A DNA stretch of 63,993 bases, the filler included, from Dimargaris cristalligena (lineage: Eukaryota): assembly GCA_003614675.1 (NCBI GenBank). It is 7 parts of 7 records of this genome, joined end to end, with 100 filler letters (N's around TTAATTAATTAA, not from the genome) between each part and the next. Parts side by side here need not be neighbours in the genome. Positions count along the whole stretch, not along the records: positions 56,405 to 63,993 come from ML003402.1; 6 more parts are not named here. One strand, 5' to 3'. The translations under genes were made by a program, and so were the position numbers. Below are positions 41,800-63,993 of the stretch, piece by piece. The notes under the pieces were generated by a model. That model was not told the origin of the DNA, did no database searches, and was given only the letters and a program-made list of their open reading frames with translations. Within the stretch, counting starts at the first letter, position 1. The number at the start of each line of letters is the position of its first letter.

Positions 41800-42656
41800 T
41801 ACTATAGAGCTATGGTAGAGTTTTGCAAGCTTAGGATCAGTGTAAAATGTATTACCTTGGTTGAGAATATAAAATGTATTAAAGACAAACATATACATAG
41901 TACAAAATGGTCTTAGAAACCTGTATTTTTTTTGTCCGCGGATTTGAGATATTGGACTAGAGATCAGACTATTGAGAGCTGACGAGCTGGCTATTATACC
42001 TTATTTACGCCTATATTCTACTAAACTTGGTATTTGCCTTGTGCACTCCAGGAGTGAAGTTGGGTTCCAGGGATGTGGCTGTGGACAACCTAACAATCGA
42101 TGAGCGGGGTATCTTCGAACGAACATGGTAGCCCGTGGTCAAGGTAGCATCCATTTAATCGTTAACCTTTGCCGCCGTATGCTTTGGACGCAAATCGGAT
42201 GTGCCTGGTAATGAGTGCAATTTTGATTGGCGAGTCGGACTGGTTGTGAGAATTATTGCACCCCTTTCATTAATCAAGTTTCATGACCTTCTCTGCGGTC
42301 GCTCAGTGATTACTAATTGCCCGTGGATTTACTCACTACCCTCATGACTGGGGCCCTCGTTCCTGGCCTAAACAAACCAGGACATTGATCGCGAACTGAA
42401 ACCCCACTGGGTTCCGCGCATCGAGCGGTAATCCTGAAACACCTGCCTAAGTAGGTGGGTGAGGGGGGGCTCCTTTCTATATAAACCAGGTATAAAGCGA
42501 CCCGCGGAACTGAGAAACGCCTTGTACTCCTTCACGTATCCATTAATCACGGCACTTTCAGTAGGTAGGAAACCCTTCTATAATATTTTCATTTATTACT
42601 GATTTAAAAAACTATATACGTAGTTTGTCATTCGCAACCCCTATTCCTATCTCAGC

Positions 42657-43589: not shown

Positions 43590-44053
43590 TCGGGTCTTTG
43601 GTGGCATTATATTGGCTATCCATAGTGGTAATTTTTAAAATAAATGAATAAGCAGCCGGCATTAATGGGATAGCGATCTACAGTAAGAATATATGTTTAT
43701 GACTCAAGTTAATGGCCAGGGCTTGGTCAAACACATATCCAACATGGGGGTTACCTGGGGAAAATATTATTCACTAAAATAACTATTGCCTTAGTTCAAC
43801 ACATGGCATCCAGGTACTATGTCTTTCAAGTTCCCGTCAATTCCCTTGAAATTAACCCCTGCAGAATTTTTTGGGTGTCCCAGCTGCATAAAGGTGCACT
43901 TGCTGGGTAGGTGAATTAATAACCTAGCAACAAAGTGGCCATCCGAAATGTGAAAAAGGAAGAACTGGGGATAATGTATTATTTTTTGAAGACGCGCCAT
44001 TTAACTAGATGGAGCCAATAATGATTGAATATGTGCATTTCATTTTATGTAGT

Positions 44054-45366
44054 TTAATCAGTTATACTCAGGTACTTTACTTCTGACCTGTATGTTGGGG
44101 GTTTCGCAAGATGGAGAAACGGCCAGAGGAAAGCCCATTGGGACTGGGTGGCCTTCTGAATAGATATTAATGGTGTATGTGTACGTGGTGTAGATGATGG
44201 ATGAAAAGAGGATGGTGGTAAAGTTGAGGAACAGTGAGAATGACTAAAGGATTCAGTAGCTTTAAGGGTTAAGATAGCTATGTACAGGAAGTACCAGACC
44301 ATTAGCTAGTTTGGCTAATCTGTACGTTGATGCTGCCACACGGATGGGTGTGACTTACCTCACTAAGGAATGCGATGGTGGATTCGGTCGCCGATGAAAT
44401 AGCCCGGCGCGAGGCATCTTTAACAATCTGACCGACATAGGGGACCCACTAAATAGATAGTAACGGTAATAAAGCAATACCGGTATGTAATGAGTAATAT
44501 GAGAGCAATTCTAGTTGATTAAGCCGCCTTTTTAAAAAAATGGCGGTGCCCATCCCAGAAAAGGTTCGTATATTGACCAATCCCATATAAACTATTTGGG
44601 GATACAATTCACGGTACCACTATAAAACATGGCTTACATTGTCGATTATGTAGTCGATATCGGACTCCATCCAGTCGATGAGAGGTTTTGCGCAGTTGAC
44701 ATAGATTGGATCCACGCCCTATACCCCGAAAGAGAGTGGATTGGGGTCACGGACAAGCATTCACAATCGAAGAAGGTAATTGGTTAGAGCATTGCTGCTA
44801 GGGAGCCAACAGCCAATCGTAGGGTGACTCGCTTAATGAAAACACAATCGGGCGACACGTTGAAGTCGTTGACGAGGAGAGACATATCCTATCCAACAGA
44901 GATATCCCCGAGCATGGGTCGAGGGATTGGCGAGGGCGATTTAATTCAGATATTCGCCAGTGGGAGGGGGGGTATATAACACTTACCACATGTGGTGGAA
45001 GCAAAAGAAACACCAAGAACAGGAAATGAAAGTGGTCGTAGAACGGCAGCCAGTTGAAAAGCAGGGCCATGGTACCTTCGGTCGTAAAATACACGGTAGT
45101 GACAATCCAGAAGGCCAAATGCTCCCGAATACGCCCCAATTTACCCGACTGGAGGGCCTTGAAGGACCGGTAAAAACCGAGCACAAAGCTAAACACACCA
45201 AAGGTCGAGTATAGGGAGGGGGCGGGGTTAGGGCAGCGGCAATAGTAAAGCGGTTAAGGGGCTGGCGACAAGGGGCAGTTAGTGCTGAGCCTCGCTACCC
45301 GGGCATATGAACTAGCGTAGACTTGACCTACCTGTAGATGCCCAACACGGACAGCAGTAAATGCAT
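44054..45366 (-). CDS. TB2/DP1/HVA22 (REEP/Yop1-family) protein; exons 45366-45332, 45188-44987, 44718-44638, 44427-44359, ~44156-44054
   Basis: Spliced product MHLLLSVLGIYSFVLGFYRSFKAL...LAFWIV...WLPFY...LLLP..GVDPIYVNCAKPLIDWMESDID; canonical GT/AG boundaries in phase; last exon uncertain. Confidence 0.8.
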
Positions 45367-46916
45367 ATTGGACGTGACCGCGGCAGCCGCCAAGACTTGG
45401 TGCGCTTTAGGTACTGGGAGATTAGAAACGGGGTGGGTTCAATAATAAATAGTTATAGAAGCAAAACCGAGAAATGAGAGCAATAGAAGACAGTGGAGAA
45501 AAACAAGCAGCCGGCAAAGGCCATGGCCAGTGGGGAGAAGACAGCACCTAGCGGAGAGTGAAAAGCAGACAAAAGCCTGAGTAGTAGTAGTGAAGGTCCC
45601 GAGCTGTATACTACATTATGGGGGAATAGAGTGGCCGTGGTTTTACTACAGAAGGACACGTGGACTGGCTGTGGGTGCCAATGCACAGATGCTGTTCAGC
45701 TGGTCGCAGTGTTATTATGTTGACGCAGTCTAAAATGCCCCTTTTAGTGGCCCATCGGGCAAAACAATTAGCGTATCATCGACTCATCAATACGGTTGAG
45801 GTTCAGCAAAGCGGTATAGGGTTTGGAATGAACCGGGTGTAGTAAAATCATTCAATCGAGCGGTGTTTTATACAATAGAGCCTAATAGGGCCCTTATTTC
45901 GAGACAGGGCGCTGCCTCTGGGCAATATTCCATAAACACAATCCAGCCACGCAAATCAGAAAAAGCAGTCGTTGGTTGGAGTAGCTACAGACTATAAAAT
46001 TGCTATAAAAGCGTTAAATGTATAGCTACTTTACAGTGGTACTGGAAAAAGGGTAACAAAATACACACTGGCTGATGATGATACATGGAATGCTAGCTTT
46101 TACCGAAATTTATTTCAATAGGACCAATACAAATTATATAAATCCTTGAAATGTCCGAAATTGCCACCAATCAGACTGTACTATTCGTCCCAGTATTGTA
46201 GACAGTGGTGTGGCTTTTTCAACCTACCGGTTCAATAATTTCCATTGAAACAAACAAAGGGCCTCATCCGAAGTCCTTACATTCTTCACGCAGCCACTAT
46301 GGCATTATCATTAATATGCAATAGTCCAAATGAGTCGTCTTAGTATTTCTTTTTATTATATTTTATGACCGAAACATATATGTACTCATTCACTAATCAA
46401 TTATCCATCAAAAAAAGTGGGTAGTATAAATAGGGCATATTTTCGCATCGAAAATCAACTTTATACACAAATTTATTATATAGGAACAAATTTAAAGATA
46501 CACATTTAACCTGCTCATTGACAGGCACCACCTTAGTTTGTATTATACGGTGGCCGGTACAATTGGCAAGCCCCTGTCTGCATCAGAAAGGGGCTTGTCT
46601 CTTTCGGTTGTTGGGTAATCCCTACCCAAGACACAGGAAGGGCTACCCATAATATCCCACTGGGGGCGGATAACATATTTTGTGCCCTGCATTACTGCAG
46701 GGAACGGCCTGTATACTGCTGCACAGGTCGATACATTTTGGAGGATGGGCGTTGAAATGGCCATTGGAAAGGGAAAGGGGGGAGAAAATGAGGGCCGGAA
46801 GGGGGAATACAAGGATGTAAGTGGTCAAAACTGTTATGAGGGAGGAGTGATGATTGTTCTATTTCTTCATCGAAATGATTGAAAATGAGTGTATATTTGG
46901 CAAGGACTTCAGTCCA

Positions 46917-47016
46917 NNNNNNNNNNNNNNNNNNNNNNNNNNNNNNNNNNNNNNNNNNNNTTAATTAATTAANNNNNNNNNNNNNNNNNNNNNNNNNNNN
47001 NNNNNNNNNNNNNNNN
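46917..47016. other. Artificial contig spacer
   Basis: N/TTAATTAATTAA/N, 100 nt. Confidence 0.99.
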
Positions 47017-47094
47017 TTTGTACTGCCGGAACCCGAGAGAATAATTATGGAGGTGTCCACACGTTCATCAATGGAGCGACTATGCGAATATTTA

Positions 47095-47173
47095 TGGGCG
47101 GCTTATTTTTAACTCAAAGTTTCTGCCTAAACCAATAGATTTTTCGTTATACAGCTTGGCTGAATTTCTCCCA
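47095..47173. mobile_element. MITE family M, partial copy
   Basis: GATTTTTCGTTATACAGCTTGGCTGAATTTCTCCCA|TA. Confidence 0.7.
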
Positions 47174-47427
47174 TATTCTGTCGGGCGACCATATCCATCA
47201 AGGATCCTCTATTTACTTAAATACAATTATTTCGGCGAATCTAGCTTACAAACTGGATCAGGTAACATTATCTGGAGTGCGGGTAGATCCACCGGCCGCA
47301 CACAGCCATGTCAAAAATAATAACAGGTAAACGGACTGGATGGCCCGAAGGCGAGTTACCAAACGCCTCGGCTGGTTATAGCGCGCACACGATTCTCTCC
47401 TAAGGCCACGTCGTTTACTGCTATACT

Positions 47428-49725
47428 CTATACAAGGTGCTCCATACTTAAACTACGCCGGACAAAGGGGGTGTCTCGGATATTCTCGACCTCCTGCACG
47501 ATTTTAAGGTTGACCCTCCAAAGCTGGCCGAAACTCGCCAGGACTTGGATAATCTCATCAATGAAAACGGTGGCCAGTTTCCGGTCGGCCGGGTCGGCTG
47601 GGCTGGGCTGGATGGTCCCCATGCCGTGGATCCGCTCGTTACACACCACCGCGGCGGGGTACAGGGCCGACGTGAATAGGGAATTATTAATGAACGCCGG
47701 CGGCGTAAAGGATTGAATCATCAATTCCCGGAAACGGAGAATGTAGAGCCAACAACGTTCGTGGCATTCCGTGAGGGTACGACCTGTGGAGTCGCCGGCG
47801 GCCTGATTCAGGGCCAACCCGGGATAGGGATCGTTCGTGTCGCTGGGGGAATGCCCGTCGAAATGGTTGAGGTAGATGATTAACATGGCGCACATAACCC
47901 GTACTTGGATACAGAAGGAGTCGGCCTCCTTCTGGGTGGGCAGGGCTGATGTGTAAGGGGAAATGCGCCAGTATTTCCCGTCTAGTTCGGCGAAGTGATC
48001 GTACCACTGCTCGAGTTCCTTGTTAAGTCCGGGCAGGGCCTGAAGCCAGGCTGTGGGATCTGTTGCTTGGCGCGACCGGAGTTGGGCGACCCGATGGCCG
48101 ATGATGGATATATCGGCTTTTATAATGATAATGTTATTTTTGATGCGGGTGTTGTTGACCATCGTTGGGTACTCTGTGCTGGTATATATATCGGAATCAG
48201 GGTTTGCCAGTTCGGCATCTAAACGGGCTTCGACATCCTGGTCGGGACTGGGTAAATTGACATAACAGTTATCCAGGTCAATCAAGGGTTTATGGCCAAA
48301 GATGAGGGCGGCCATCATGTCCTTATTAAAATGGGCCCACCATACTATCCGGTAGTGTTCGCGTAGGAATTCATTGGCTATGGTAGGTGCATCTATCATG
48401 GTGTCGGTGTCGGTGTTAAAGTGAGTCGGCCGCGGGGGTGGGTTGGGGTGGTCAATTAGATAGGACCGGATACCGTGCTGCTTGCGGATAGAGGCGGCGA
48501 GTAGGGTTTGGTGGAGGGACAGATAGCCCAGGCCTAGGGTCGCCTCGGTCAACATACCCAGAACGACAAACATGTCGGGGCTGGGGTCGGCCAGACAATG
48601 CGGCAGCATAGCAATTAGCCGGGAATGGTACTCTCGGCTGATCATATGGGGCGGGATGTGTTCAAAAGCAGGGTGGTTGGAGAAGGGGGCCACGGCCATC
48701 ATGGCCGCTAGTTGGTAGGCTTCGGGAACGAGTTGGTTATCGAGTCGGTAGAGAATCCGAAGACGGTGCAGGGGGCTGCTGCCTCGGTAGATGAGCGTAC
48801 AAAAATCATCCATCGAATGGCGCACCACGCTGGAATGGTACAGTAAATCGACGGGGGAAAATAATGTACGAAGGCTAGGGGACTTGCCGCCATTGTCCGG
48901 CAATATGTCATACGAGACAATCCTAGTTTTCCCTTTTACTCCTTCGAGTTCTTCTTTTTCTTCTTCAAGTTCTTCGTTTTGGCTTGCTGGTGGTGAAAGG
49001 TGACTCTGGGAAGAGTTACGTCGTGCCTGGGACGCCAGCGAGTTGCGCATTAGCTTGAACATTAACCGGGCGGTCCGCTGGCTGATACTGTCATCCACCG
49101 GATTATTCATGCTAAGTTGTCTGATGCCGGCCAACAGCCAGGTTGGTAACAGGCCCCGCTCAGTTGGGTCGAGCGCAGGCGAGGGCAACACGGATGAGGA
49201 CGACGACATTGCCGTAGACGAGCCATTGTTGTAGAAATCGGCTTCCGGGGACTCCAGGGGTGGGTTTGCAGACATAAAGAGGGGGCCTTCTGGACCGAGC
49301 CTGTCCCTCCTCGTCAAACCCAAGGGAGCGGTCTGAAGTAAGGCTGAATCCCGCCGACTCGGCTGCTGGAATACAGTCCCCACCGCGGTCGGCGCGCCCT
49401 CGAAGCGTGCAGGTTGGGAGGGTGAATCGGTCGTGGGTGAAAGGGAAGACGAGTTGGAGGATGTCGAACCTTCGTCCCAGGCCCCTCCCCCCCTACCTGG
49501 GACCTCGGTCTCGGGCGCACGGGCCAAGGCTTTACGGAGACGAGCGGGCGTAAGTTGGTAGTGGCAGTCCGCGTTCCATTGCTGACAGGTGGTGCAGCGA
49601 GGTAGTACCCGGTCGCAGCGGACCTTGCGTTTGCGACAGCCGAGACAAGAGTAGCGGGCGTGTTCCGAGGCGCCCGGAAGAAGGGGTAGGAGTGCCGTGT
49701 GAGTTGAGGGGTTGTTAGACCTCAT
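47428..49725 (-). CDS. Zn(II)2Cys6 fungal transcription factor
   Basis: CLGCRKRKVRCDRVLPRCTTCQQWNADC; fungal TF middle region REHYRIVWW...D...FGHKP...VNLP. Confidence 0.92.
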   Translation of the reverse strand: MRSNNPSTHTALLPLLPGASEHARYSCLGCRKRKVRCDRVLPRCTTCQQWNADCHYQLTPARLRKALARAPETEVPGRGGGAWDEGSTSSNSSSLSPTTDSPSQPARFEGAPTAVGTVFQQPSRRDSALLQTAPLGLTRRDRLGPEGPLFMSANPPLESPEADFYNNGSSTAMSSSSSVLPSPALDPTERGLLPTWLLAGIRQLSMNNPVDDSISQRTARLMFKLMRNSLASQARRNSSQSHLSPPASQNEELEEEKEELEGVKGKTRIVSYDILPDNGGKSPSLRTLFSPVDLLYHSSVVRHSMDDFCTLIYRGSSPLHRLRILYRLDNQLVPEAYQLAAMMAVAPFSNHPAFEHIPPHMISREYHSRLIAMLPHCLADPSPDMFVVLGMLTEATLGLGYLSLHQTLLAASIRKQHGIRSYLIDHPNPPPRPTHFNTDTDTMIDAPTIANEFLREHYRIVWWAHFNKDMMAALIFGHKPLIDLDNCYVNLPSPDQDVEARLDAELANPDSDIYTSTEYPTMVNNTRIKNNIIIIKADISIIGHRVAQLRSRQATDPTAWLQALPGLNKELEQWYDHFAELDGKYWRISPYTSALPTQKEADSFCIQVRVMCAMLIIYLNHFDGHSPSDTNDPYPGLALNQAAGDSTGRTLTECHERCWLYILRFRELMIQSFTPPAFINNSLFTSALYPAAVVCNERIHGMGTIQPSPADPADRKLATVFIDEIIQVLASFGQLWRVNLKIVQEVENIRDTPFVRRSLSMEHLV

Positions 49726-51181
49726 GGTGTGGCGGATGGGTTAGCCAGGGTGGGCAGACAGACACGTACAACAAATAGAATAAACCCGAACCGGAAGAAA
49801 AGCGCGGGAATAGAAAAGTCTTATGCGGGGAAATGGACAGAACGGTTCAGGGCAAAGGAGGCAGCTGGCCGAGGGCTAGGCATTTCGAGCGCGTATAATA
49901 AAGAAGGGCACAATGAGGAGGAGGAATAATATTATTGTGTATAAGTAAGTATAATGGAGTCATAGGCCCCGAAAACGTGGCAGCAGGGATATGCAAGACA
50001 TTATGGGTTGCTTAAAGGGACTGGCTTAGAGACCATATGGTGGTTGAAATAGTCGAGCGAATAAGGAAAGGTGTATTCCCCTCCTCCTCTTTTTCCACTC
50101 CCGGCCTCTAAAATAACAGTGAGAGAAATGACTGAGGGCCCAGCCTATTGATTATGTCCACAGCACTCCTTTACGGCAAAGAGTGTGTTTGGCATATCTG
50201 ATTCCCTCTCGCGCCAGTCAACTATTATAATATCCACTGAAGAAACTTTAAATAGCCGCAGCACATGTGATCTGCGCCCCAACCGATTCACCAATCCCAA
50301 GAAGGGGGCCTATACTTCAGTTTATGGGGAAAACACCGACAGCTTAATATAGGAAAGCCGGGCTATTTGCAGTTTATTGATGAACCGTTATTCCGCTGGC
50401 AGAGCTATTCAAGCGGCCTTGGCAAAATAACGGATAGGATAAAAGAGTAGCAGAAAGAGCATGGCCGGTTGGGATTATCACGCCAACCTGAAAATACCCC
50501 CAATTCTATAGGCTGTGCCAGGTGAGCATAATGGCCAGGTTGGTGGCACTCCCACAGTATGAGATACACTGAACTGCGGCCCAGTAGCTGGGTGAGACAG
50601 CTCCACTTCCACTTCCACTCCCAAGGAACCGCTATATAGACCATCTAGAAGCTGGCTGCTCCAGATTAACATAGCAGAGTGGGTTTCCTACTATGCTACT
50701 CTTCTGGAAGAAACCAGCCAACTGCCCTTCCGTATTACCGAAAATAGCGGTACCTTGGTCTAGTAGTCCACTCTATTTTTAATTGCAGCTTACCTATAAG
50801 CACACCCCCTCGTTATGCCATCCCGCCTAGTGTCAGAACATTATTGTTGGCCATTCATTGTATGTAGTGTAATATGAAAGAGAAGAACACTGAAGGGTCA
50901 GTGAAATGTATCGATTCGAAACTTTGCTCCTCCGGCTCATTGTTTATCCGCTTCCCTTTTTGGACATTGCTTCGAAATTGCTGCGCAGCTTGCCATGCAT
51001 TATTTGGCTGGCGCACCTTGAATAACCACCACCTTCAACAGCCCTGGGCTTCACAAGCGGTAGCCTGTACCGGAATTCATGTTTTTCAATAGTCCCCATT
51101 CCCATTCCCATTCCTCCAATCACCTCGCCCCTCTTCTCAGTTATACTACACCCGGCTCCTTTATTAGCGGGTGCCTTGTCC

Positions 51182-53449
51182 ATGGGACCTGCTTCCCCTA
51201 GCCCCTGCTTGCCCCGCGGTCCTTTGGAAGGGCCTCCTCCCCCCGAGCGCTTCCGCTATAGCTGCCTCAGCTGCCGTACCCGCAAAGTCCGCTGCGATCG
51301 ACTAGTGCCCCAATGCACGACATGCCAACAATGGAAGCTCGAATGCCAATACCAGCTCACTCCTGCTCGCCTACGAAAGACCCTGGCCCCAATCCCTTAT
51401 AGAGTTGCCCATTTCGTCCCGGTGCGCCCAGCCTTGGCCTACTCGTCGAAGTCTCCTACCGGTCTAAGTGGCCCGCATAGCACGGCCACTTCGCTTGCCC
51501 AACCGAGAGTTGTCTCCTTTGTAACAGCAAGCAAACCCGCGGATCCCAGAGACCGCCCCCCTGAACCAGCGACTTCACCAGATATCCCAGGAGGTATTCC
51601 GGAGCTAGCCAACCTCAGTATAGGCGACCCTTTTACTCAGCCTCTCCAGGACCGCATTCCAGCAGACGACCCCGAATACTATGATGGTATAGATGATTTA
51701 ATTGCAATAACTTTGGCTGCAACACCCATACCACACTTAGAATTAGCGACACCTCTTGTTTGCCCGATTCGGACAATGGTCACAGTCGAGCAGCTTGGCT
51801 CGGTAGCCCTGGAAGGTAATAGTGTGGATCACATTACCTCGAAGTGGCTACTCAATTCAATGAGGAGGCAGCCAGCAACCCCCGTGGATCTATTATACCC
51901 TAACCTACTTTCGAGCACGGTTAATGAAGGAAAGACCGCTCCTTCGCCTAGCAAAACCGCTGGCTATGAGCTTAGCATTGCAAACCTCCGCTCCTTGATT
52001 GTACCCACCGACCTGCTGTACCACTCTAGCGTAGTGCGCTATTCCATTGAAAATTTCTGTTCGTTCATTTACCAAAACTGCAATCCCTTAAATAGCGCCC
52101 GGGTACTATTTCGACTGGACAACCAACTGGTTTCCAAGTCCTTCCAGCTGGCTGCCATGTTGGCTGCAGCCCCCTTTTCCGACCACCCCGCCTTTGAATA
52201 CCTCCCGGCCCACGCGGTGAGGCTGGAATACCACTCTCGACTGCAATCTATGTTACCCCTTTGCTTGGAGGATTCTAGTCCGGATATAATACCCCTCCTG
52301 GGTATACTCTCCGAGGCCAGCTTAGGCATTGGTCGGTTCTCCCTGCACCAAACGCTAATTGCCATTGTGTTGCGCAAACAGCAAGTAGCGCGGATCCATC
52401 TTTTGGACCATCCCCACCTATCCCCACGACCCGCTCACCTTACCCTTGACCCGGATTCGGGAGTGGACGCACCCACCTTACAAAACGAGATTTTACGGGA
52501 GTACTACCGGGTATTATGGTGGACTTTCGTTCACAAGGACATGACTAGCGCCCTGGTCTTTGGCCATAAGCCACTGGTTGATCTAGACAAGTGTTATGTC
52601 AACCTTCCCTGTCCTGACCGTGACATTGAAGCCCGGTTGGATGTCGAGTTCGCCACCCCTCATTCGGACATTTTTACCAGCCAGAGCTACCCAACCCTTA
52701 TCAACACATCCTGCATTAAGAATATGATTATCATTGTCAAGGCCGAGGTGACTATTCTGGGTCATCAAGTGGCCAGGCTTCGAGCTCGCCAAGCAACCGA
52801 CCCTACGACTTGGCTTAGAGCTCTACCCGGACTTAATCGAGAGCTTGACCAGTGGTACGACCGCTTTACCCATTGGTCCGACTTGGACAGAGCTAATCCC
52901 CAGTCCCGCTCGTTTCCTCCCACTTCATCCGAATCTAAAACTACATGTTTCCAGGCCCGGGTGACGTGTGCCATGTTAGCGATTTATCTTAATCATTTTG
53001 ACGGGCATTCACCGGACAACCCCGAGGCCTTCCCCGGGTCGGCGTTGAATAGCGCTCTCCAGGTTTCAGGTGACTCAACGGGCCGTACGCTAGGCGAGTG
53101 TCACGAGCGGTGTTGGCTCTATACGGTCCGACTTCGCGAGGTCTTGGCGCAGTTGGTCACCCCGCCCGCGCTTATCAACACCGGTCTGTTTATTTTGGCC
53201 TTGTATTCGGCCGCCATTGTGTGTATGGAGCACATGCATATCCTAGACTCCGACCGCTCAGCTCCAGTGACGCGGGAAGGCGAACGACAACTGGCTGTAC
53301 GCTTCATCGAAGAAATTATGCAAATCCTGACGGGGTTCAGTGAAGTATGGAAAGTAAACCTTAAAATCGTCGATGAGATCCGCAAGATCCGGGACTCCCC
53401 ATTCGTAAGACGACGCCTAAGTATCGAGCACCTTGTCAAGCCTGAATAG
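51182..53449 (+). CDS. Zn(II)2Cys6 fungal transcription factor, paralog of 47428-49725
   Basis: CLSCRTRKVRCDRLVPQCTTCQQWKLEC; first ATG at 51182; extensive shared blocks with the divergent neighbour. Confidence 0.92.
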   Translation: MGPASPSPCLPRGPLEGPPPPERFRYSCLSCRTRKVRCDRLVPQCTTCQQWKLECQYQLTPARLRKTLAPIPYRVAHFVPVRPALAYSSKSPTGLSGPHSTATSLAQPRVVSFVTASKPADPRDRPPEPATSPDIPGGIPELANLSIGDPFTQPLQDRIPADDPEYYDGIDDLIAITLAATPIPHLELATPLVCPIRTMVTVEQLGSVALEGNSVDHITSKWLLNSMRRQPATPVDLLYPNLLSSTVNEGKTAPSPSKTAGYELSIANLRSLIVPTDLLYHSSVVRYSIENFCSFIYQNCNPLNSARVLFRLDNQLVSKSFQLAAMLAAAPFSDHPAFEYLPAHAVRLEYHSRLQSMLPLCLEDSSPDIIPLLGILSEASLGIGRFSLHQTLIAIVLRKQQVARIHLLDHPHLSPRPAHLTLDPDSGVDAPTLQNEILREYYRVLWWTFVHKDMTSALVFGHKPLVDLDKCYVNLPCPDRDIEARLDVEFATPHSDIFTSQSYPTLINTSCIKNMIIIVKAEVTILGHQVARLRARQATDPTTWLRALPGLNRELDQWYDRFTHWSDLDRANPQSRSFPPTSSESKTTCFQARVTCAMLAIYLNHFDGHSPDNPEAFPGSALNSALQVSGDSTGRTLGECHERCWLYTVRLREVLAQLVTPPALINTGLFILALYSAAIVCMEHMHILDSDRSAPVTREGERQLAVRFIEEIMQILTGFSEVWKVNLKIVDEIRKIRDSPFVRRRLSIEHLVKPE

Positions 53450-55714
53450 AAGTCGTCTAGGCTGGGCCCCTTCCGCCCCTATCCCCCGTCTTTTTCATTT
53501 ATTTATTAAAAAACACACATCATTCCTTTATTAAGATTTCTCTCTGTCTTGCCGCGCTCCTTGAACCTTACGAAGGCATTTGTCTACTCCTCCTGCCTAA
53601 CATTGAACGAATAGACGACTTCCGTCTTCTTCTATAGTTTAATTCCTATATTAATGTTAAAGTCGACTTTTGAATATATAAAAAATGAATATTGCTTGGC
53701 ATGTAGGTGCGCCTAATCCTTTAGGGCACTCAGCTGGTCAGTACGTTCAGTGTTAGCGACCTCCAAATCCTTTCCAATATGATGTATGCCCTTGTTTGGT
53801 AATTCACCATCCACCGTGATACTTAGGAGCCCCAAATCCAAAATGAAGTGTTCATAGTTTGCTTTCTGTGTCCCTATTTTCCCCCAAGTTTAAACATACA
53901 TTTTCATTGATGGCTGGACCAGCCCGATAATGGGGTGTCTATTTTGGTGAACTCCCGGCAATTCTACTATTCATTGGGTATACATATATATACCCGGTGG
54001 TTCCCCCTCCAATTAATACGACAGTTAACTAATCGATAGCCCAACCCCCCACGTCTGGATGATTTATTTATTTTATTGAGTAGGGTATTAGTTGAACTTT
54101 ATTCTATCGGGTAATGAACCAGCACCATTTGCTTCCCCGTTTCCATCGGGTAGGCCAGTCCACACTCATAGTAAAAGACATTAGCTAAATATTGCCCCCA
54201 TATATCTCTCAGGGGTTTTCATTATCCTGTTACGTATTAACGGGGGTAAATGTGCTGTTGTGTATATGGTTTACTGGTATGTGAATTGCTACTACAGGAA
54301 CCTCCCCCAAGATCTGGGTAGTGGCGAGAGCGGCTGGTTTTTCATACAACCAACGGGCGTAAAACCTCCTGTCCTGCTAGTTGTTACACTGGCTCGTCTA
54401 TTGGTTTATTGTCCCGTTACAGCCCAAACACTCTTTTATATTACCCGCCACATTCCTCACACCCGCTATGAAGCAGGTGACAACCAAAGATAATAATAGT
54501 TTCTGACCGTGGTTTGGATATCGAGTTATAGTAAAATGAGGATTTTGTTACATTCTGGCGGATACCGACTTTAGGTCGGGGCATTATTGATAAACAGACC
54601 CGTGGTTCGCCTGACTCGTCTACTAAACCCACAACGATAAATGCCTTTAGCCTACTTCCGAGCATATCTCTCTTATTAGCAGTTTATCGCTTATTATTTG
54701 TGATGGCCGTTAAAGCCTTCAACGATACGTACTTTAATAACTGTCACCTTTCGCTGGCGGTATGTAATACTATTTGTATGAATGTGGCTGGGCGTGTAGT
54801 TATAAACATTTGGTGATTGGGTTATTATGAACAAAAGCTTTATACGATGGGCCAGGCCTGTTTTTAGATTAGTTCCTATCCCCCATATACCCTTCATTTA
54901 CACCCGATTCGACGTAAGATACCATTATCGAGCCTATGACATGCCACACTTCGCCAGATACGTAAAATTACATCCCCGTTTGGCTAATGTAATGGCTATG
55001 GGCTAGATAGTGAAATGCGGGGGCGTAGTGACTATGCCTATTGGTACGGTCATAGCTTAGTAAAAAATATTTCCCTGGACTAAGGGGGGGGGGGCAGATG
55101 CAGTTGGTTTTGATAAAAACCGACGGCTGTTTAGCCTCTTGTCCAACTGGTGGTTACACTAACCATAGTATTGGTCGATTGGCCTATTCCAGGTAGGACC
55201 ACGAAGGTGCGACAAAGGAGTATGAACGAGGTACTTTTAACCGCCGGAAAAGACCAAACACCCCGAATCTGGGCCAACACCTGGCCTTCACACTACTATT
55301 GTCCCACCATGCGGGCGGCAAGCTGTTGCAGGCCTAGTTAACCTATAGAGTAGCAACAGGTAGTTGGGATAGAAAGGCTCGTAGACTTATCCCTGCATCT
55401 TAGTAGGCCCTGTTTCTCGCTCGCCCCAAAAATAATCGTCAGACAGGTTTAAATAATACATTACCACCAGGGTAGTCTCATTTACCACGGCTAAGGCGGT
55501 TGGGAGGTGTGAGGAGAAACAAATCACCGCAGACACGGCAGCTAGTTCTCGAACAATATCCACGAAGCCCCCAGCCATGTATGGGTCAAACTCAATTACA
55601 GTTGGCGGCTCCGGTGGGACAGCACCCCCCCCCCCCTACCCATAATTCTATGATTGGAAAGGGAGGCCCAATAAGTTTGGGCCGAGAGAAGAGGCTACAG
55701 ATAGCAGAGGGGGG

Positions 55715-56203
55715 TGTCGCCTGAGTTAACCACTCTTAGTCTGTCAAGAGTCTCGGGGATAGGCTTCTAACGGTAGGCAGGGCATTGGCATGGCCAAGCG
55801 GGCTACTAGCATTAGGTAAGGCTGTACTAACCTAATAAAGCAAGTGTCAAATGCATATGTGGGGGATGTGTACTGATGCACACTTACTAGTCAGTATGGG
55901 GGGTGAGTATATATAGGGTTTATTGGGGGTAAACTAAGGGGTCAGAATAAGCTAAGGTACTAACTGGTCCCTATGGGGGGCCCGGTTATATATATGCAGG
56001 GGACTACTCTAAGGGAGGTCCCGAGGGGAAACTACATAACTAAGATAATGATAGGGGGGGCTGGGTGGTCCTTGTATGAGCAGAGGCTTCCATGGGAACT
56101 GGAAGATACTAAGATCACCTAGGAGTAAGTAGTGTGAACTCTGGGGGGTCCGGCCAGTGGGAGGGTATATATGATATCCAGCTCCATTAGGACTGGTGTG
56201 GCA
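55715..56203 (+). mobile_element. LTR family A-related solo LTR retaining more CpG
   Basis: TGTCGCCTGAGTTAACCACTCTTAGTCTGTCAAGAG...; aligns with 19699-~20150; right end (GTGTGGCA) uncertain. Confidence 0.75.
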
Positions 56204-56304
56204 AGGTGTACTGTCCCCCTATAAGCCACACTAATTATATTACTATTATTATTATTATGCAGGGTATGGAGTGGCTTTTTTTTCTGGTATAACCAGTTTT
56301 TTTT

Positions 56305-56404
56305 NNNNNNNNNNNNNNNNNNNNNNNNNNNNNNNNNNNNNNNNNNNNTTAATTAATTAANNNNNNNNNNNNNNNNNNNNNNNNNNNNNNNNNNNNNNNN
56401 NNNN
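56305..56404. other. Artificial contig spacer
   Basis: N/TTAATTAATTAA/N, 100 nt. Confidence 0.99.
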
Positions 56405-58054
56405 AAAAATAGTTTGGCCGGGATATGCTATTAGGGATTAAGCAGGCCCGGCCACAACACCATAGAATATTGAAAAAAATTTGATACATAGTTAGTCTTA
56501 CAGGATTAATTGAAGGTACGCAATTAAAGGAACTGTGCTTCACATTAATAGGTCTATCACAACTAGTAGTGTAATTGGTTAATTAATTTACCTTTAACTA
56601 CCTGCGCTCTGCAGCACTACATCGCCACCGTCTAATTGGGGTATAAAACCCAATCATAAAAAACTGCTACTACATTTTTAAATAGTGGAGTGTTTTGGCC
56701 CTGCTCAACATTTTGTAAATAGCTGTCCAACTAAATCTGTATTTGATAGCAATGCGTAAATGACAGAATATACGAATATTGGAGTGTATACATTTTAATA
56801 CTTGGTTTCGATATATATATATATATGGTATATATATGGTATATTTTTACTCTGACGAGTTGAACGTGGTCCAGGAGCCTCCTTTAGCCGAAGTAAATAT
56901 TGGGTGGTTAAAGAGGAAGCGGGAAAGAGGGGAGACATGCGAGACCAAGTCCAAATCGATGCCTTTAAATGGCAATAGGGAGGGGAAGGCATGGATATAT
57001 ACCCCTTATTCGGCCATTGTCCCTCTCATCATTGGAGTACTCAAGTGTTCTTGTCCTACCTATTCTATTGGGAAAGCGCGTGGTCTCAGGAGTACAACAA
57101 AAGCATCAAAGTTTTTGATTTGACAGTACCCCTTCGACATCGGCAGTACTTTATTATTGCCTAGTAAATGTCTAAAGCAGATGTGGGGTTTTTTACCACC
57201 ATAGCCCTCTATTTACTACGCCCAACTTGGGAACAATGGGCTTTATAATAATTTCTTTTTATAGAGTAGTATAGGAGGTTTATTGGTTCCCGATCACTGT
57301 ACCGATAGGCGATATAGGGCACTGTGTCCTTTAGATCGGCTGCTATAGCGAATATTGGACGCGTCCTCGTCATTTTGCTATGGACTGGCCGCCTCACCCA
57401 CCCCAGGCCCACCTTTTGTGTGGAACCAGACCTCGGCGTACTTCTCATTGATTGGGGTGCGTCGCAGATATTTCCCCCCCTGTACCGCCCCTTATCGCAC
57501 TCTCCAACGCCGCCCCGCGACACTTCCTCCCCCAACACACCAGGCCACTTGTTGCCACCCACCCCATGCTTCTATTTCTTTGCTTTTTCTTCTTCTCCTG
57601 GCTCGATCCTTTGACGTTCCCAAGGGGAGACTATGGGCCCTATTGGGATGAAGTCGTGTGGTCCCTTCTCCCCGAAATAAATGTCCTTCTGTAGATTGTT
57701 TTTGTCTATAAAGTTTACTCTATAGTAGACATTAGGGTTAATGTAACCACGACGGAGGGAGCTGTCTTAGGGTGTTAAATAGGCCCCAGGCTGGCCTGGG
57801 TCATCGCCACAGACCGGATAGGGGATGGGTGCGTGTGATAAGGAATGCAAAAACAACAAGGCACCCCCCTCCCCAATAATTGGCATCGGCTGTTGCCGCT
57901 TCCCTTTGTTACGCAGCTGCGAGTACAGAGCCGTGAGCACAGCATTTCCCTCTTTTAAATTTAAAATTGTGGCTATTTTATCATGCCTCAATGAATTAAT
58001 TTGATTACTTTTTTTTAAAAAAAATCGGATAATGGATATTCCATCGCCCAGATA

Positions 58055-58133
58055 TTGGAGAAGTTCAACTAGACTGTATTACGAAAAATCCGTCTGACGA
58101 GGCCAATGTTACTGGTTAAAAATGAGTCTCCCA
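58055..58133. mobile_element. MITE family M, short form
   Basis: TTGGAGAAGTTCAACTAGACTGTATTACGAAAAATCC...TTACTGGTTAAAAATGAGTCTCCCA|TA. Confidence 0.8.
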
Positions 58134-58288
58134 TATATATATTTATGGCCAATCCCGGCAATTACTTTGCTCTTTATTATTTTCTTGAAAGTGTTTTAGT
58201 ATGAGTAGTTTCTTACCGTACGCCGTGTCTTAAAGGGTACTCATATCCCCATATCTATAGCCTTCACTTTTCCATTTTTTTTATACCC

Positions 58289-60125
58289 ATGAGGTTTCCA
58301 GTCTTCATTTTCAGCCTAATAGTCCTTTCCGCCGTGGGTGCAGAGAATACCGATGCACGAAGCGAGACATGTTCGGACATTGGTGGTGTGCAGAATATTC
58401 GCCCTCCGCAGGGGCCCGTAAATTATTTCACCCCAATGCCCCCCAACAGACCACCGACCCCGCTAGGATATGTGAGCCCCTACGATCCACAACATGTACG
58501 TCCATATTGCCACCTTTCTTTCCCACCCACCCCCATTTAAATGGAGCAATCTATATCACTAATGGTGACCCTGGCAATTGATGCCCTTCAAGCCATATAC
58601 CTTTAGTATTAGAAGGTCTTGTACTATTGCCCTAATTCCACCACGACTACTTGGTTATAATTAGCACTAATTACTTGATTCTCTTTGATACCTCTAACTG
58701 CTTTTTACCTATGACCACCCTCCTGCATCACACCCGACCTAATGCTCGCCCCCCTAGATAATAGACGACTGGGAATACCACTCCAGTCGCATGGGAAGTA
58801 TATTAGTAAGCCAGGCGACCTGTGACCGATACCTCCCCTTGTGGTTCGCTGTCGCTCCCGCGGAAAGCTGGGATATCTACTTACACCATCTGAGCAAGGA
58901 GATCGAGGCATTCGAAGACATTCTCTACCGGGTTTATGAGGAGGGCGACGAATTCGACGCCACTAGTGAAGACCGTTCTCAACTGTCGAAGTACAACACT
59001 TTCATGAAAACCAATTTTGGCCATATCTTGTTGATCAAGAATGAGCGCCAGGATGCTCGACTTAGTTCGCTGACTTGGGAAACTTTCGAAACCGAATTCC
59101 CCTTGGCCAGCCAGGCGACGGGGACCATGTTGGCTGACTTAATTCAGTGGCTCTCTTCCGTCGATAAAAAAATGAGATTGCCGGAGTTGAAATTGGGACG
59201 CCCGGCCGTCGGCGATGAACTAGTAACTGATATATTGGGTAGTTTTAACATGGTCCATAGTTTCTTCGAAGAAATATTCGACCAAATTATCACCATTGGT
59301 CTCTGGCAACATTACCTGAAGTCATCAACATTGTCGTCATCAGCATCGCCACTGTCGCCGAAAATGATATTATCTGCCACATTATTTGCATTTCCCTTAC
59401 CGCCGAGCAGTGAAGGTCGGTCCGATACGGACGACTCCAACTGGGCCGAAATCATCAAATATTTCCGGATTGCCAGCGAATATGCGGTACGTGCCCCCCG
59501 TGGCTCTAAACGCCGGGTGTACCGGGTTCTCGAACTAGTTACCAAACACGCTGGGTTTGTCGCTATCCTCGCCGTTATGAATCAACGGGTAGACCATTTG
59601 GTCGCCGTCCTACCCTACATGTACTATGAGCAGCGTTGGCTAGCTCCCCAGGACCCGCAGTTCCAAGTCTATTTCCTCCGGTTCCTAAATGGTCTGGATA
59701 ATAGCCATTTGGAAGAGTCCGCGCTGTTCTTGCGAACCCAATGGTCGACTTTGTTCCCGGGGGCATCGCTCGCGGCGAGCCCCCATCGAGAGTTGCCCAC
59801 TATCTTCACCCCATGGAAACCAATACCCTACTTAAATAACGATTACCAATGGCTGGATACCAGGGGACATCTCTTCGTGACTGTTCCCCAAGTGGTACTA
59901 AAAAATCCGGAGATTTTCCCCAAGGACACTTGGAAATTAACACCAAGGACTTGGCTTATGATGTATTACAATTTCGTAAGATCTTCCGAATTTTACCGCA
60001 ACTGGATCCGGCTATTGGAAAACCGAGAGGAAGAAAAAAAGACGAGGCCGCGGTTCAAAATCTTAAAACGACTAAATAAAAGTCTTAAGAGGACCGCCCT
60101 ACTGGGCCGTAAAGGACGGGAATAG
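58289..60125 (+). CDS. Secreted orphan protein, 2 exons: 58289-58495, 58758-60125
   Basis: Signal peptide MRFPVFIFSLIVLSAVGA; phase-0 intron GTACGT(58496)...TAG(58757) joins in frame to the 444-aa ORF; very basic C-terminus. Confidence 0.75.
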
Positions 60126-60496
60126 CGGATTGGCACTACTCTACCCATACGGATTATTTAAAAGTGAGGGGTTTCAAGGATAGCTAGTATCTTTTGGACA
60201 GGAAGTTGAATGACATTCGCGATATCATGATTTCCAATAAAATTTCAAACCTATTTGGTCAGACGAGGAATTTAATATTATTACTGGTTGATTAGATAGT
60301 TTTTATTACATGTACATAATTAAACTGGACTACAATCAACACAACTATATAAAATAATGGACGAAATGTACAAGAGATGATGTATAATACACTTCTAATA
60401 AAATAAAACTAAGCTTTCTCTATAAAGGTTTCATTATACACATGAGTGAAATTTGGCCCGGTTATGTAAGGTTTTCAAGTATATATATATATTGAA

Positions 60497-60863
60497 TGGC
60501 ACCCGATATCCCGAGTTAGCCTATCCGGAAGGATATGCCTTAGGCTTGGACTATGCAGGGTGGTGCAAGGGCTGGTGGTAGACGAGGCGTAATCGGTAAG
60601 GCGCGGGGAGAAGGGGGGAGGTGACAGTAATCAGGGGACGCCATAAACCGGCTTACTGGCTTAAGTGGGAGAGGGGTGTAAAGGGTTTATTAGATCATAA
60701 ATAAGCATAACTCAGTTAAGGAAATAAAAGAGCCGAGTGGCCCCTGTTATATACGCTGGGCCACTCCTATAAAGGAGAGTTATACACGCGGATGGGGCAG
60801 GATGGGATGCCCGTCTGGTAGCCATCAAGCAAATAGTAGGTATATAAATAGATAAATGACACA
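60497..60863. mobile_element. Possible solo LTR
   Basis: Starts TGGCACCCG (similar to family A start), ends TGACA(CA); minus-strand TATA and AATAAA; no convincing TSD. Confidence 0.35.
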
Positions 60864-61065
60864 TTCGATACGTTGCTGGTTTCTATCAAAGGCATGGAGG
60901 TGTTGGAAGACATCTGGTATTGTCAAGGGAGTGTACGAGGTGGAACCAGGTCAAGGTTGATTAACCAACGCGACAGCCCACCTCAATAATTTTACCAATT
61001 ATCAGAACTAATACACTTTCAAAAAATGATCCAATCCGGTTTATTGAACTTCCACTTTATATTAG

Positions 61066-61544
61066 TGCACGCCGGCTTAGCAACGAACTTGAGGCAATGC
61101 TCCTACGCATCAGCGAGGGCTTCAATGACCAGGTGAGGCCATCTTAATTTTGCTCATCAACAACTACGATCTGATTCTCACGATTCTTAACGAAAACGGG
61201 TTCGAAGGGGACAGTGATGGGGCGGTGGCGATACCTCCGAAATCAGCGTGGACTAATTCGATAAAGTCATCGCCTAATTCAACGCCAATATCCGCGGCAG
61301 TTTGGCTAATATCAATGCGGCCGTCATCCGAAACTTCTCCAACTTTAAAAACGGTACCCATATTTTGCATAGTGTCCTGGGGCAGCTGATTTTGTACTAT
61401 AACTAATTTTACAACTTTTTCGATCGTCGTTTTACCAAAAAAAAAAGGCAGCCGCGGGCTCCGGAGCCGGACGGCCCAATCAGTGTCCCGTTGGTATTCA
61501 AAATTTCATGGCTGAGATAAAAAAAAAAGAAGTACAATTTCTAA
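61066..61544 (+). pseudogene. VPS52: Vps52 (GARP subunit) C-terminal fragment
   Basis: Across frames: RRLSNELEAMLLRISEGF...LINNYDLILTILNE...INAAVIRNFSNFKNGTHILHSVLGQLILYY...PVGIQNFMAEIKK..NF*; two in-frame TAA, frameshifts and an apparent internal deletion. Confidence 0.8.
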
Positions 61545-61727
61545 ATGGTTAAGATGAGCCGTCTGGTCCTATTCTGTTATATCTTTGTTGCATAAGTATA
61601 TATTATTTATGACGCCCTTGGTTACATGCAAAATATTGGGTTTGTTTGTGGTGGTATTTCATGCCAGGATAACTATGTAGATTTAGTCTTACTAAATGAA
61701 AGTGTGTCATTTCCATTAGGGACCATA

Positions 61728-61865
61728 TGGGTGAAATTCAAACCAGCTGTATAAGGTTGTACATAATATATGTATAGGTGAATATATGTGAGAATAGCTT
61801 TTAACCAGTAATATTGGTCTCATCCAATGGATTTTTCATTATACAGCCTAAATAAACTTCTCCCA
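61728..61865. mobile_element. MITE family M, full copy
   Basis: TA|TGGGTGAAATTCAAACCAGCTGTATAA...TTATACAGCCTAAATAAACTTCTCCCA|TA. Confidence 0.88.
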
Positions 61866-62635
61866 TATCATGCAGGTTAACTATGGATTAATACATGTTT
61901 CTTTTCATTTGACATAATCCATCATAGTTTTAACATTTTTAACTGCAATATAAGGTACTATGCATATCTAGGAAAAAATAGAAAAGACCCTAATAAGTCA
62001 AGCAGGAAATTTTGAAAACCTAGTAATTCTATACAATTATTTCCCAAATATGCTTGTCAGCTTAGTAAGCCTATGATATCCTATCACCCAGTTATAAGGA
62101 TAATATTTACTATTAAATGGTGCATTTGTAAGCCGAGCTCTCTTCCGGAGGTCAGAGGCTTACTAATATCCCACCTTAAGACAATTTTTTTAGGTCACAC
62201 TGATGTAGGTTATAGTCACTTAATAGTATTCTGTTATTTTTTAAAAGTCAAAATTGAATACAAAATCAAGGATGAATTGGTCTTCCAATAGATTTTCCGA
62301 CTAAGTTTCATGGGGAGATTAGTAATGGGCCCCTTTGATTAATATTATCACAATGAAAGGTGTTGATATATGCAATTGACCACCTTGATTTAATGGTCCA
62401 AATGGATGTGAGACCAAGATTATCATCATCTGAACCACTACATTCTATTATATAGGTTACCCTATCATGATGTACCTTGTAACCAGTCTCTGTACATTGA
62501 GTATAAAACCATGTCCACCCATATTCCAGAAATTAACCAATATCTTAACCATCACCATTCACCAGTCTTCAACTACACCTGAAATACCTTACCTACCACA
62601 CACTTTCATTGCTCTGCTCTAAGTTATACACAACT

Positions 62636-63540
62636 ATGTCTTTGTCCACTTCCAAAGCCCCCATCCCTCTCTACACTGCCAGTAAGTTGGTAGTGATGAT
62701 GTTTCTGTTGCAGTTCTATTTTAGCAAAAGTAATCGACCCTGTCTTACCAAGGTGCCCGGCTCAGACTGCTGGTACCCATGTCTGTCATAGACCCAGCTA
62801 TGGGTGATATGCTATTCCATTACAACCAATTGCTAATTCTGAGTCCCAACCAGATTATCTATGTGGTATGCTTCCTTGCTATTCCCAAAACTATGTAGCC
62901 ACCCCCAATGGATGGAAGGTGACCATTGCCCTGGAGGAGCTCAGAATCCCCTATGAACTCAAGCCCCTCAACATTAGTACCAACATACAGAAAGAGGAGT
63001 GGTTCCTCAAGATCAACCCCAACAGATGCATTCCCACCATTATCAATCAACAATCATGGTGACTTCCCCATTTTTGAGTCTGGGGCCATTCTGCTCTGGC
63101 TGGGTGAACATTATGACCACAAGCACAAGCTGTGGCCCACTGACCCCAAACTCCAGTCTGAAGTGACCCAGTGGATCATGTTTCAGATGGGTGGGATTGG
63201 ACCCATGCAGGGCCAGGCTGGTCATTTCCAACACACCACTCCTGAAGTAAATAAGTATGGCATCACCTGCTACACCAATGAGACCCACTGCCTGTATGGT
63301 GTGCTCAAGAGTTGTTTGGCTAATAAGGACTACTTAGTGAACAACCAGTATAGTTTAGCTGATATCATCAACTTCAGCTGGGTGGTGGTCCACAGATTTG
63401 CTGAAATTGATATTTCAGACCTACCCAATGTTCAGGTGTGGAGGAAGTGCATCCTGATTCACCCTGCCATACCCAAGGCTATGTGTAACCCAACCTCGCC
63501 CATGGTCAAAGATATTCTCAAGAAGGCCAATGTGGCTTAA
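62636..63540 (+). pseudogene. Glutathione S-transferase (Ure2/YfcG nu-class-like) pseudogene; exons 62636-62681, 62899-63540
   Basis: LYTATTPNGWKVTIALEEL, QKEEWFLKINPN, IFESGAIL, WIMFQMGGIGPMQGQAGHF, YSLADI; frameshift near 63047; conserved R/G/D/E codons altered at CpG. Confidence 0.88.
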
Positions 63541-63903
63541 AGGGTGTGTATCTCTGAATTGTAGATTATATACCTGTGTTTTATCTATAACCTAGTAGTT
63601 TGACAAACTGGCAGGTGGCCTTAAAATAGTATTACTATAGCTTAACCAAATAAAGTAGTACCACATACACAATTGTAATGTTTAAGAAGGTGAGGGAAGG
63701 GCAGGTAATATATTCTAACTGATAAGCATGGGACTGAAATATCCATTATCATAAGTAGAATTTATAGGGTAGTATATTGCCAAATGGAAATGGGTTTGAA
63801 TGGACATAATAAGATTAATTTGTTGGGAAGATGGATAGCCATTGTGATGCAGATAGAGGAGACTGGATATAGCAGTATGGGCAGCAATGGTCAGTAGTAC
63901 AGT

Positions 63904-63993
63904 TGTGGTGAACTTACCACATTTTTTACCTACTTTTATTTTTTATCTATTTTTCGCACTTATCGGAAGTATGCCCCTGACGAGTGAATGAGC
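63904..63993 (+). mobile_element. LTR-like family H terminus
   Basis: TGTGGTGAACTTACCACATTTTTTACC..., identical to the reverse complement of 9417-9471. Confidence 0.75.

Follow-up and report, generated by a model that had tools for sequence, protein, structure and literature searches.

Near-complete loss of CpG from a duplicated gene for glutathione transferase in the fungus Dimargaris cristalligena

Results

A duplicated glutathione transferase (GST) gene of Dimargaris cristalligena had lost nearly all CpG dinucleotides, together with its flanks, and its divergence from the intact paralog consisted mostly of CpG transitions. It was probable that methylation of CpG in silent or repeated DNA, followed by deamination of 5-methylcytosine (5mC), had stripped the copy.

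Composition and source of the window

The window, that is, the whole stretch of DNA that was analysed (63,993 bases), was made up of seven contig pieces and six spacers, each spacer consisting of 44 N, TTAATTAATTAA and 44 N. The pieces were whole contigs of a fragmented assembly, and the last of them (7,589 bp) carried the GST copy:

1-9316: piece 1
9417-18724: piece 2
18825-28127: piece 3
28228-37527: piece 4
37628-46916: piece 5
47017-56304: piece 6
56405-63993: piece 7

Since the pieces had dispersed repeats in common, all of them came from one genome. The best protein matches were to Dimargaris cristalligena (Zoopagomycota, Dimargaritales), in agreement with the early-diverging fungal host assumed by the sequence-only reading that preceded this analysis. 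The species is described as a mycoparasite, with an assembly derived from amplified single cells (PMC6784888). Because the window was seven joined contigs, the mariner element and the other CpG-poor tracts described below were not neighbours of the GST copy, and the earlier argument from adjacency to transposable elements was partly built on reading seven contigs as one locus. Scans of the whole window for tRNA genes and Rfam families found nothing. An ORF at 58758-60122 encoded an orphan hypothetical protein, the sole homolog of which was itself.

Structure and identity of the GST copy

The gene structure was as follows:

62636-62681, plus strand: exon 1 of the GST pseudogene, with the ATG at 62636; 15 codons and 1 nt
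62682-62898, plus strand: GT..AG intron of 217 nt, with 2 CpG (o/e 0.20)
62899-63540, plus strand: exon 2 of the GST pseudogene, 642 nt including the stop at 63538-63540; GST_N_2 and GST_C domains
63048-63054, plus strand: +1 frameshift, 7 nt against two paralog codons (H66, K67)

The ATG, both exons and the intron were found again at the coordinates proposed earlier. Pfam domains GST_N_2 (3.6e-10) and GST_C (2.9e-6) were recognized, and a protein search returned 453 homologs at E<=0.001. Judging by these domains and by its homology to fungal GSTs, the copy belonged to the Ure2p/Nu-like glutathione transferases. The closest proteins were Dimargaris cristalligena's own, which supported the view that a host gene had been duplicated. 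The search recovered just two clusters of this GST from the species. The intact paralog, P0002 (RKP39686.1 / KAJ1983763.1), was 228 aa long and identical in two assemblies, and shared 81% identity with the GST copy over the part searched (paralog residues 67-228). Contamination or foreign DNA was ruled out since the nearest relative of the copy was this paralog of the same species, and a retrocopy was ruled out since the intron had been kept.

In exon 1 there were two differences from P0002 residues 1-15 (S3L and T11P), and the split codon 16 (A16T) straddled the intron. The frameshift in exon 2 had been overlooked in the sequence-only reading; the frame upstream of it met a TGA at 63060-63062. 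The locus was represented in the public annotation by P0121/RKP34022.1 (212 aa), recorded on a contig of 7589 bp and thus as long as piece 7, and in a second assembly by P0001/KAJ1989169.1 (193 aa), carried by a contig of 59.5 kb, both of them protein-coding models whose contrived splicing dodged the frameshift. In P0001, 152/153 C-terminal residues were the same as in the GST copy, and part of the intron was translated identically.

The substitutions listed earlier had been read against a remembered consensus. When they were measured again against the real paralog P0002, every one of them was present: G58R/R59C (AAC AGA TGC), R139C, R145H/R146C, E152K/R154C, D40N and R203H/V206I. Altogether, amino-acid differences were found at 42/226 comparable codons. 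Judged against three Dimargaritales outgroups, 24 of these were derived in the pseudogene and 2 in the paralog, while 16 could be assigned to neither. The derived changes struck G58, R59, A62, D65, R139, R146, R199 and G209, residues that were conserved in nearly all nine aligned relatives. The NPNGRIP region was broken by G58R and R59C, in columns that were invariant in 9/9 and 8/9 relatives, respectively. Moreover, all 11/11 Arg residues of P0002 were replaced in the GST copy (by 6 Cys, 3 His, 1 Gln and 1 Ser). By its sequence, then, the copy is a pseudogene, a dead paralog of a single intact Ure2p/Nu-like GST.

CpG depletion of the copy and its flanks

Exon 2 contained one CpG, while 37.1 +/- 4.6 were expected and the minimum in 10,000 mononucleotide shuffles was 19. 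The recount and the shuffles thus confirmed that a single CpG was left. TG occurred 59 times (33.8 expected) and CA 67 times (46.9 expected), so that the surplus of TpG and CpA together (~45) was in line with the CpG deficit of ~36. The GC content of exon 2 was 0.48, compared with 0.49-0.58 in nine long ORFs of the window, and this lower value fitted the loss of ~36 G:C pairs.

The depletion claimed for the GST copy was real, but the affected tract was wider than the gene and comprised all of 61490-63993, where 11 CpG were counted against 93.7 expected. Its left border was sharp, with 33 CpG in 61037-61489 followed by 5 in 1146 bp. The following elements of the tract were identified in addition to the exons and the intron:

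61490-62635, no strand assigned: CpG-poor 5' flank, CpG o/e 0.16 and GC 0.33
61721-61870, minus strand: copy of a MITE-like repeat of ~150 bp, with ~16-nt terminal inverted repeats and 0 CpG
63497-63498, plus strand: sole CpG left in exon 2, codon TCG, Ser215
63541-63993, no strand assigned: CpG-poor 3' flank, reaching the contig end

Within the 3' flank, the repeat at 63901-63958 recurred at 9417-9474 (100% identity, reverse complement) and at 37695-37746 (96%).

Mutation spectrum and rate

Base changes were inferred codon by codon, by taking the nearest codon for each P0002 residue and then classifying the changes. This gave 45 inferred changes, with 27 of them converting CpG to TpG or CpA (18 to CpA and 9 to TpG); the remaining ones were 5 other C-to-T/G-to-A changes, 1 reverse transition and 12 transversions. 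When only single-step unambiguous C-to-T changes were considered, 26/28 were in CpG and 1/28 was at CpA, a CpG share far above the context-blind value of 0.22 (p ~2e-15). Accordingly, the idea that the GST divergence was mostly due to CpG transitions held. In the window, seven ORFs with Pfam support used CGN for 251/281 of their Arg codons. The 5' neighbours of the 27 inferred CpG sites were G (11), T (8), C (5) and A (3); all four contexts were struck, but because the decay was saturated a preference could be masked. Set against the customary thresholds of the classical RIP composition indices, exon 2 (TpA/ApT 0.54; (CpA+TpG)/(ApC+GpT) 1.64) did not have the canonical RIP pattern.

The composition of the exon implied ~35-37 ancestral CpGs, and the single survivor corresponded to ~3.6 hits per CpG. 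Nonsynonymous non-CpG changes numbered between 7 (surely in the pseudogene lineage) and 18 (both lineages) over ~508 sites. The per-site ratio of CpG to non-CpG rates was 46-120 by point estimate, with a conservative floor of 16, a calculation that used the composition-inferred number of ancestral CpGs and nonsynonymous non-CpG changes only. At a mammal-like ratio of 15, the probability that at most 1 of 35 CpGs survived was 4e-5 to 0.01. Thus, CpG loss had run ahead of background mutation, as the sequence-only reading had supposed.

CpG-poor blocks and repeats in the window

Five CpG-poor blocks accounted for 14.4% of the window and had a pooled CpG o/e of 0.09. In addition to the tract with the GST copy they were:

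9417-10960, no strand assigned: CpG-poor, opening contig 2
17935-18724, no strand assigned: CpG-poor, closing contig 2
18825-21750, no strand assigned: CpG-poor, opening contig 3 and holding the mariner element
37628-38987, no strand assigned: CpG-poor, opening contig 5

Two tracts noticed earlier (~9600-10950 and ~37630-38980) were indeed CpG-poor and fell within the first and the last of these. All five blocks adjoined contig ends and bore dispersed repeats, a location that was expected if multi-copy DNA breaks assemblies. In the window without the blocks the CpG o/e was 0.83, and in the nine long ORFs outside them it was 0.85-1.09. The distribution of CpG o/e in 200-bp windows, checked within the analysed stretch, was bimodal with few intermediates: 59 windows were at 0-0.1, a trough lay at 0.2-0.3, and the main mode was at ~0.7-0.9.

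Pairwise spectra of repeats were uninformative alone since both copies had decayed, and adjacent double transitions were counted instead. In 16 repeat alignments, which were not mutually independent, TG:CA was the top class of adjacent double transitions, with 27 cases compared with 1-10 in each other class (classes unsymmetrised). In one MITE column, three copies had CG, two had TG and one had CA. On this sequence pattern, the repeat copies had decayed independently of each other. Comparison of the six MITE copies with their consensus revealed no directional bias (34 C-to-T, 35 T-to-C and 30 transversions).

An inverted pair of Zn2Cys6 genes of 1.4 kb (47432-48843 and 52016-53436) was 66% identical and had 99 and 91 CpG. 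Because this pair was still CpG-rich, duplication by itself did not set off CpG loss. A Pfam scan of 20 ORFs from the CpG-poor blocks and 46 others found no reverse transcriptase or integrase, the only hit of this kind being the mariner transposase. Neither retrotransposon protein domains that would match the LTR family A of the sequence-only reading nor the CpG-rich young elements that the signature had been said to spare were found among the scanned ORFs of the window.

The mariner element

One block contained a transposon:

20334-21641, plus strand: decayed mariner element with 43-nt TIRs, Transposase_1, 1 CpG, 1 frameshift and 6 in-frame stops

In comparison with its closest intact relative, P0273, 110/371 codons differed, with 37 CpG transitions, 48 other C-to-T/G-to-A changes, 5 reverse transitions and 27 transversions, and 21/31 Arg residues were replaced. 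Polarity was assigned in those 222 columns in which P0273 was backed by 5 or more of 8 further relatives. These columns held 53 differences, including 40 single-step C-to-T changes: 17 in CpG, 17 in CpA, 4 in CpT and 2 in CpC. The remainder comprised 3 reverse transitions and 4 transversions, along with 3 changes that were ambiguous and 3 that took more than one step. A comparison of the mariner with its 150 best representatives was rejected, as these were at most 60% identical and too distant (42/71 changes were transversions and 9 were CpG-type).

The mariner had been thought to carry the same signature as the GST copy. It was CpG-poor too, but its spectrum differed: the polarised ratio of non-CpG C-to-T changes to transversions was 23:4, compared with 2:5 in the GST copy (Fisher p=0.007). 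The mariner thus carried a second, CpA-biased C-to-T component that was absent from the GST copy, a lead only, coming from one element. The composition of the mariner was not RIP-like (TpA/ApT 1.04, substrate index 1.26). The CpA component could reflect non-CpG methylation, a RIP-like process or simply the greater age of the element. Methylation in CG and CHH contexts has been reported for Phycomyces transposons (PMC11258239).

Discussion

Methylation followed by deamination

The decay of the GST copy was specific to CpG and saturated, was mirrored by a reciprocal gain of TpG and CpA, and affected a pseudogene within a set of depleted blocks that all carried repeats. We infer that methylation was the cause, and this reading was the probable one. 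In this model, the dead paralog would lie inside a repeat-bearing block that was presumably transcriptionally silent, and Dimargaris cristalligena would keep its silent and repeated DNA CpG-methylated by means of a putative maintenance enzyme of the DNMT1 and/or DNMT5 type. Spontaneous deamination of 5-methylcytosine would yield thymine, and the T:G mismatch so formed would be poorly repaired. Decay of methylated CpGs to TpG or CpA would then far outpace change at other sites, while unmethylated genes would retain their CpGs, and sharp borders would form between CpG-rich and CpG-poor DNA.

Several published observations are consistent with this proposal. Transposons from Microbotryum, Melampsora, Puccinia and Tuber were described as having a CpG signature, which was linked there to Dnmt1 class IIA, with methylation plus deamination as the proposed mechanism (PMC4352252). 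The excess of CpG transitions in Agaricomycotina was put down to passive 5mC deamination (PMC3318451). Almost all 5mC was reported to be in repeats in Phycomyces and in Linderina pennispora, a member of Zoopagomycota from the same subphylum as Dimargaris (PMC11258239), and in early-branching fungi 5mC was described as restricted to transposons (PMC12695648). Coemansia and Linderina are reported to have CDCA7F, and nearly all species with CDCA7 to have DNMT1, so that DNMT1 is implied for these two relatives (PMC10538959). On the other hand, overall 5mC was found to be scarce in Mucoromycota and Zoopagomycota (PMC11258239), and a 2026 review considered it near-undetectable in early-diverging fungi, in a passage that did not name Zoopagomycota (PMC13297926). 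Low global 5mC would be compatible with methylated repeats because the methylated fraction would be small (14% of the window). Since most of the Dimargaris sequence was CpG-normal, methylation would be mosaic and restricted to repeats, an arrangement already described in other early-diverging fungi (PMC12695648, PMC11258239).

Alternative explanations

Two observations may speak against passive decay alone. The point estimates of the rate ratio at the GST copy were high next to the human CpG/non-CpG ratio of ~10-18, and CpG maintenance methylation alone did not account for the CpA component of the mariner. Both could be produced by an active CpG mutator triggered by homology or repeats (RIP-like, or MIP with enzymatic deamination) in one or a few bursts. 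Such a mutator would also suit the saturated loss of CpG beside little non-CpG change, the duplicated nature of the target, the bimodal CpG o/e of the 200-bp windows, few of which were intermediate, and the hypermutation-like spectrum of the mariner, where CpA was hit as often as CpG. A RIP-like TpCpG pattern has in fact been reported in Pucciniomycotina (PMC3318451). However, we considered an active mutator unlikely. RIP-type mutation in Neurospora strikes both copies of a duplication, but the partner P0002 retained all 11 Arg residues at the protein level, identically in two assemblies. The linked inverted Zn2Cys6 duplication had kept its CpGs, exon 2 and the mariner both failed the RIP indices, the depletion extended into non-repeat flanks, and the MITE copies had mutated without direction. 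Saturation set only a lower bound on the rate and did not prove a burst; similarly, a high ratio need not mean an enzymatic burst, for it would also rise if replication errors were few or T:G repair was weak. A kingdom-wide screen reported RIP-like enrichment only in ascomycetes (PMC12543289). Thus, nothing in the data showed the duplication-triggered mutator that the sequence-only reading had favoured. It was likewise doubtful that Dimargaris has a repeat-directed mutator with dual CpG and CpA specificity, a RIP-like defence outside Dikarya that would quickly erase the CpGs of silenced duplicates and would, in multi-copy transposons, turn CpA into TpA as well. If the rate excess and the CpA changes of the mariner were nevertheless the work of an active mutator, RIP-like defence would reach beyond Dikarya.

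It was more improbable that the pseudogene was carried as cargo within a larger unit, mobile or repeated, and was methylated and decayed together with that element rather than on account of being a gene duplicate. The dispersed repeats on either side of the gene (61721-61870 and 63901-63958), the depletion of the whole 2.5 kb up to the contig end and the position of all five blocks at contig ends, as expected of multi-copy DNA, would fit such a unit. However, the two GST clusters of the species gave no hint of many copies, and terminal repeats around the gene were not found within the contig, where the block ran off the end. Finally, it was very improbable that the pattern stemmed from ageing blind to context, from codon bias, from foreign DNA or from an artefact of amplification or sequencing: although the assembly came from amplified single cells (PMC6784888) and the CpG-poor blocks were more AT-rich than genes, these explanations were at odds with the concentration of C-to-T changes in CpG, with the reciprocal surplus of TpG and CpA, with the matching sequence in the second assembly and with the nearest relative being the species' own paralog.

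Novelty and relation to known systems

Decay by methylation and deamination would not be an undescribed system, as the sequence-only reading had suggested, because CpG-signature C-to-T decay of fungal repeats has already been published (PMC4352252, PMC3318451). Our literature search found no methylome, CpG-decay or RIP report for Dimargaritales, its scope being texts rather than supplementary tables, which possibly list Dimargaris. The process was therefore known, while its description in the fungal group of Dimargaris appeared to be new. The GST copy offered a clean natural example of what would be fast decay of methylated CpG in a fungus, with a known intact parent and with nearly every early change being a CpG transition. 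It also implied repeat-restricted CpG methylation in Dimargaritales. Bimodality of CpG o/e might serve as a cheap, sequence-only marker of silenced DNA in uncultured early-diverging fungi.

RIP, the RID-dependent process of Ascomycota, similarly inactivates duplicated DNA permanently by C-to-T changes, and the CpA component of the mariner was comparable to it. The GST copy differed from RIP in that its context was CpG rather than CpA, TpA was not enriched and the partner protein was intact. The TpCpG hypermutation of Pucciniomycotina (Horns et al. 2012, PMC3318451) resembled our case as a repeat-associated C-to-T change at CpG-containing sites, and that source presents it as debated between RIP-like and methylation-driven origins. 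In contrast to it, sites in the GST copy were not limited to a 5' T (8/27), with the reservation that saturation would hide a preference.

In vertebrates and plants, methylated pseudogenes and transposons decay at CpG and accumulate an excess of TpG and CpA; the sequence outcome in Dimargaris was the same, and the same chemistry is proposed here. In mode, the case came closest to what methylated repeats undergo in Microbotryum, Melampsora, Puccinia and Tuber, a C-to-T decay ascribed to Dnmt1/Masc2-class methylation plus 5mC deamination, and to the background of Agaricomycotina, where C-to-T changes in CpG also strike repeats or silent DNA and spare genes. The GST copy shared with the decay in basidiomycetes and Tuber the lack of a CpA/TpA RIP signature. 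It differed in lineage (Zoopagomycota, Dimargaritales) and in the target, which included a host gene duplicate. Moreover, decay of the GST copy was complete, with 1 of ~36 CpGs left, compared with a signature reported in 10-40% of transposon copies in those basidiomycetes (PMC4352252; PMC3318451).

Mutation contexts in the decayed mariner

Mutations were counted by sequence context in a decayed mariner transposon:

20334-21641, mariner with 43-nt terminal inverted repeats, one frameshift and six in-frame stops

In this element CpG loss was accompanied by a CpA-biased excess of C-to-T changes. Among 222 polarised columns, i.e. alignment positions where at least five of eight further relatives agreed with the closest intact relative (P0273), C-to-T changes numbered 17 at CpG, 17 at CpA, 4 at CpT and 2 at CpC, whereas transitions in the reverse direction numbered 3 and transversions 4. 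The CpA-biased component of the mariner was absent from the glutathione transferase (GST) pseudogene. Non-CpG methylation or a RIP-like process could be the source of this component in the mariner.

The GST pseudogene in public annotation

The GST pseudogene (62636-63540) was entered as protein-coding in both public annotations (RKP34022.1, 212 aa; KAJ1989169.1, 193 aa), with splicing that left out the frameshifted site as well as a portion of the conserved N-terminal domain. Codon 226 (63529-63531), which was AAT (Asn) in the window and Ser in the protein of the other assembly, was the sole mismatch among 153 C-terminal residues and represented an A/G change rather than a CpG change. The intact GST paralog was identical between the two assemblies.

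Other genes and a CpG-rich duplication

Three further coding features were as follows:

47428-49740, minus strand, Zn2Cys6 transcription-factor gene
51026-53449, plus strand, its divergently oriented paralog
58758-60122, open frame of 455 codons, CpG o/e (observed/expected ratio) 1.09, adjoining the CpG-poor block of the GST pseudogene

The Zn2Cys6 paralogs, separated by about 1.3 kb, shared 66% identity across 1.4 kb and were both fully CpG-rich (99 and 91 CpG within the aligned parts). No Pfam domain was found in the open frame, and its sole database match was a 341-aa hypothetical protein of D. cristalligena itself; it is therefore an orphan gene.

Repeats and composition of the window

A MITE-like family of about 150 bp, with terminal inverted repeats of about 16 nt, was found in four of the seven contigs (1, 3, 5 and 7), and contig 6 carried a 43-bp match (47134-47176):

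1-77, 2965-3098, 8195-8332, 24875-25027, 38044-38190, 58052-58138, 61721-61870, MITE-like copies

These copies were located in CpG-normal DNA as well as in CpG-poor blocks, and comparison with their own consensus revealed no directional mutation bias. Another short repeat was located at or near three contig ends:

9417-9474, contig 2
37695-37746, contig 5, 96% identity over 52 bp
63901-63958, contig 7, 100% identity to contig 2 over 58 bp

It probably marks the border of a multi-copy element at which the assembly was interrupted. The seven contigs (9316, 9308, 9303, 9300, 9289, 9288 and 7589 bp) were joined end to end by N44-TTAATTAATTAA-N44 spacers:

9317-9416, 18725-18824, 28128-28227, 37528-37627, 46917-47016, 56305-56404

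Since the pieces were separate contigs, features on different pieces had no physical linkage. CC/GG dinucleotides were in excess across the whole window (o/e 1.29 outside the CpG-poor blocks and 1.51 inside).
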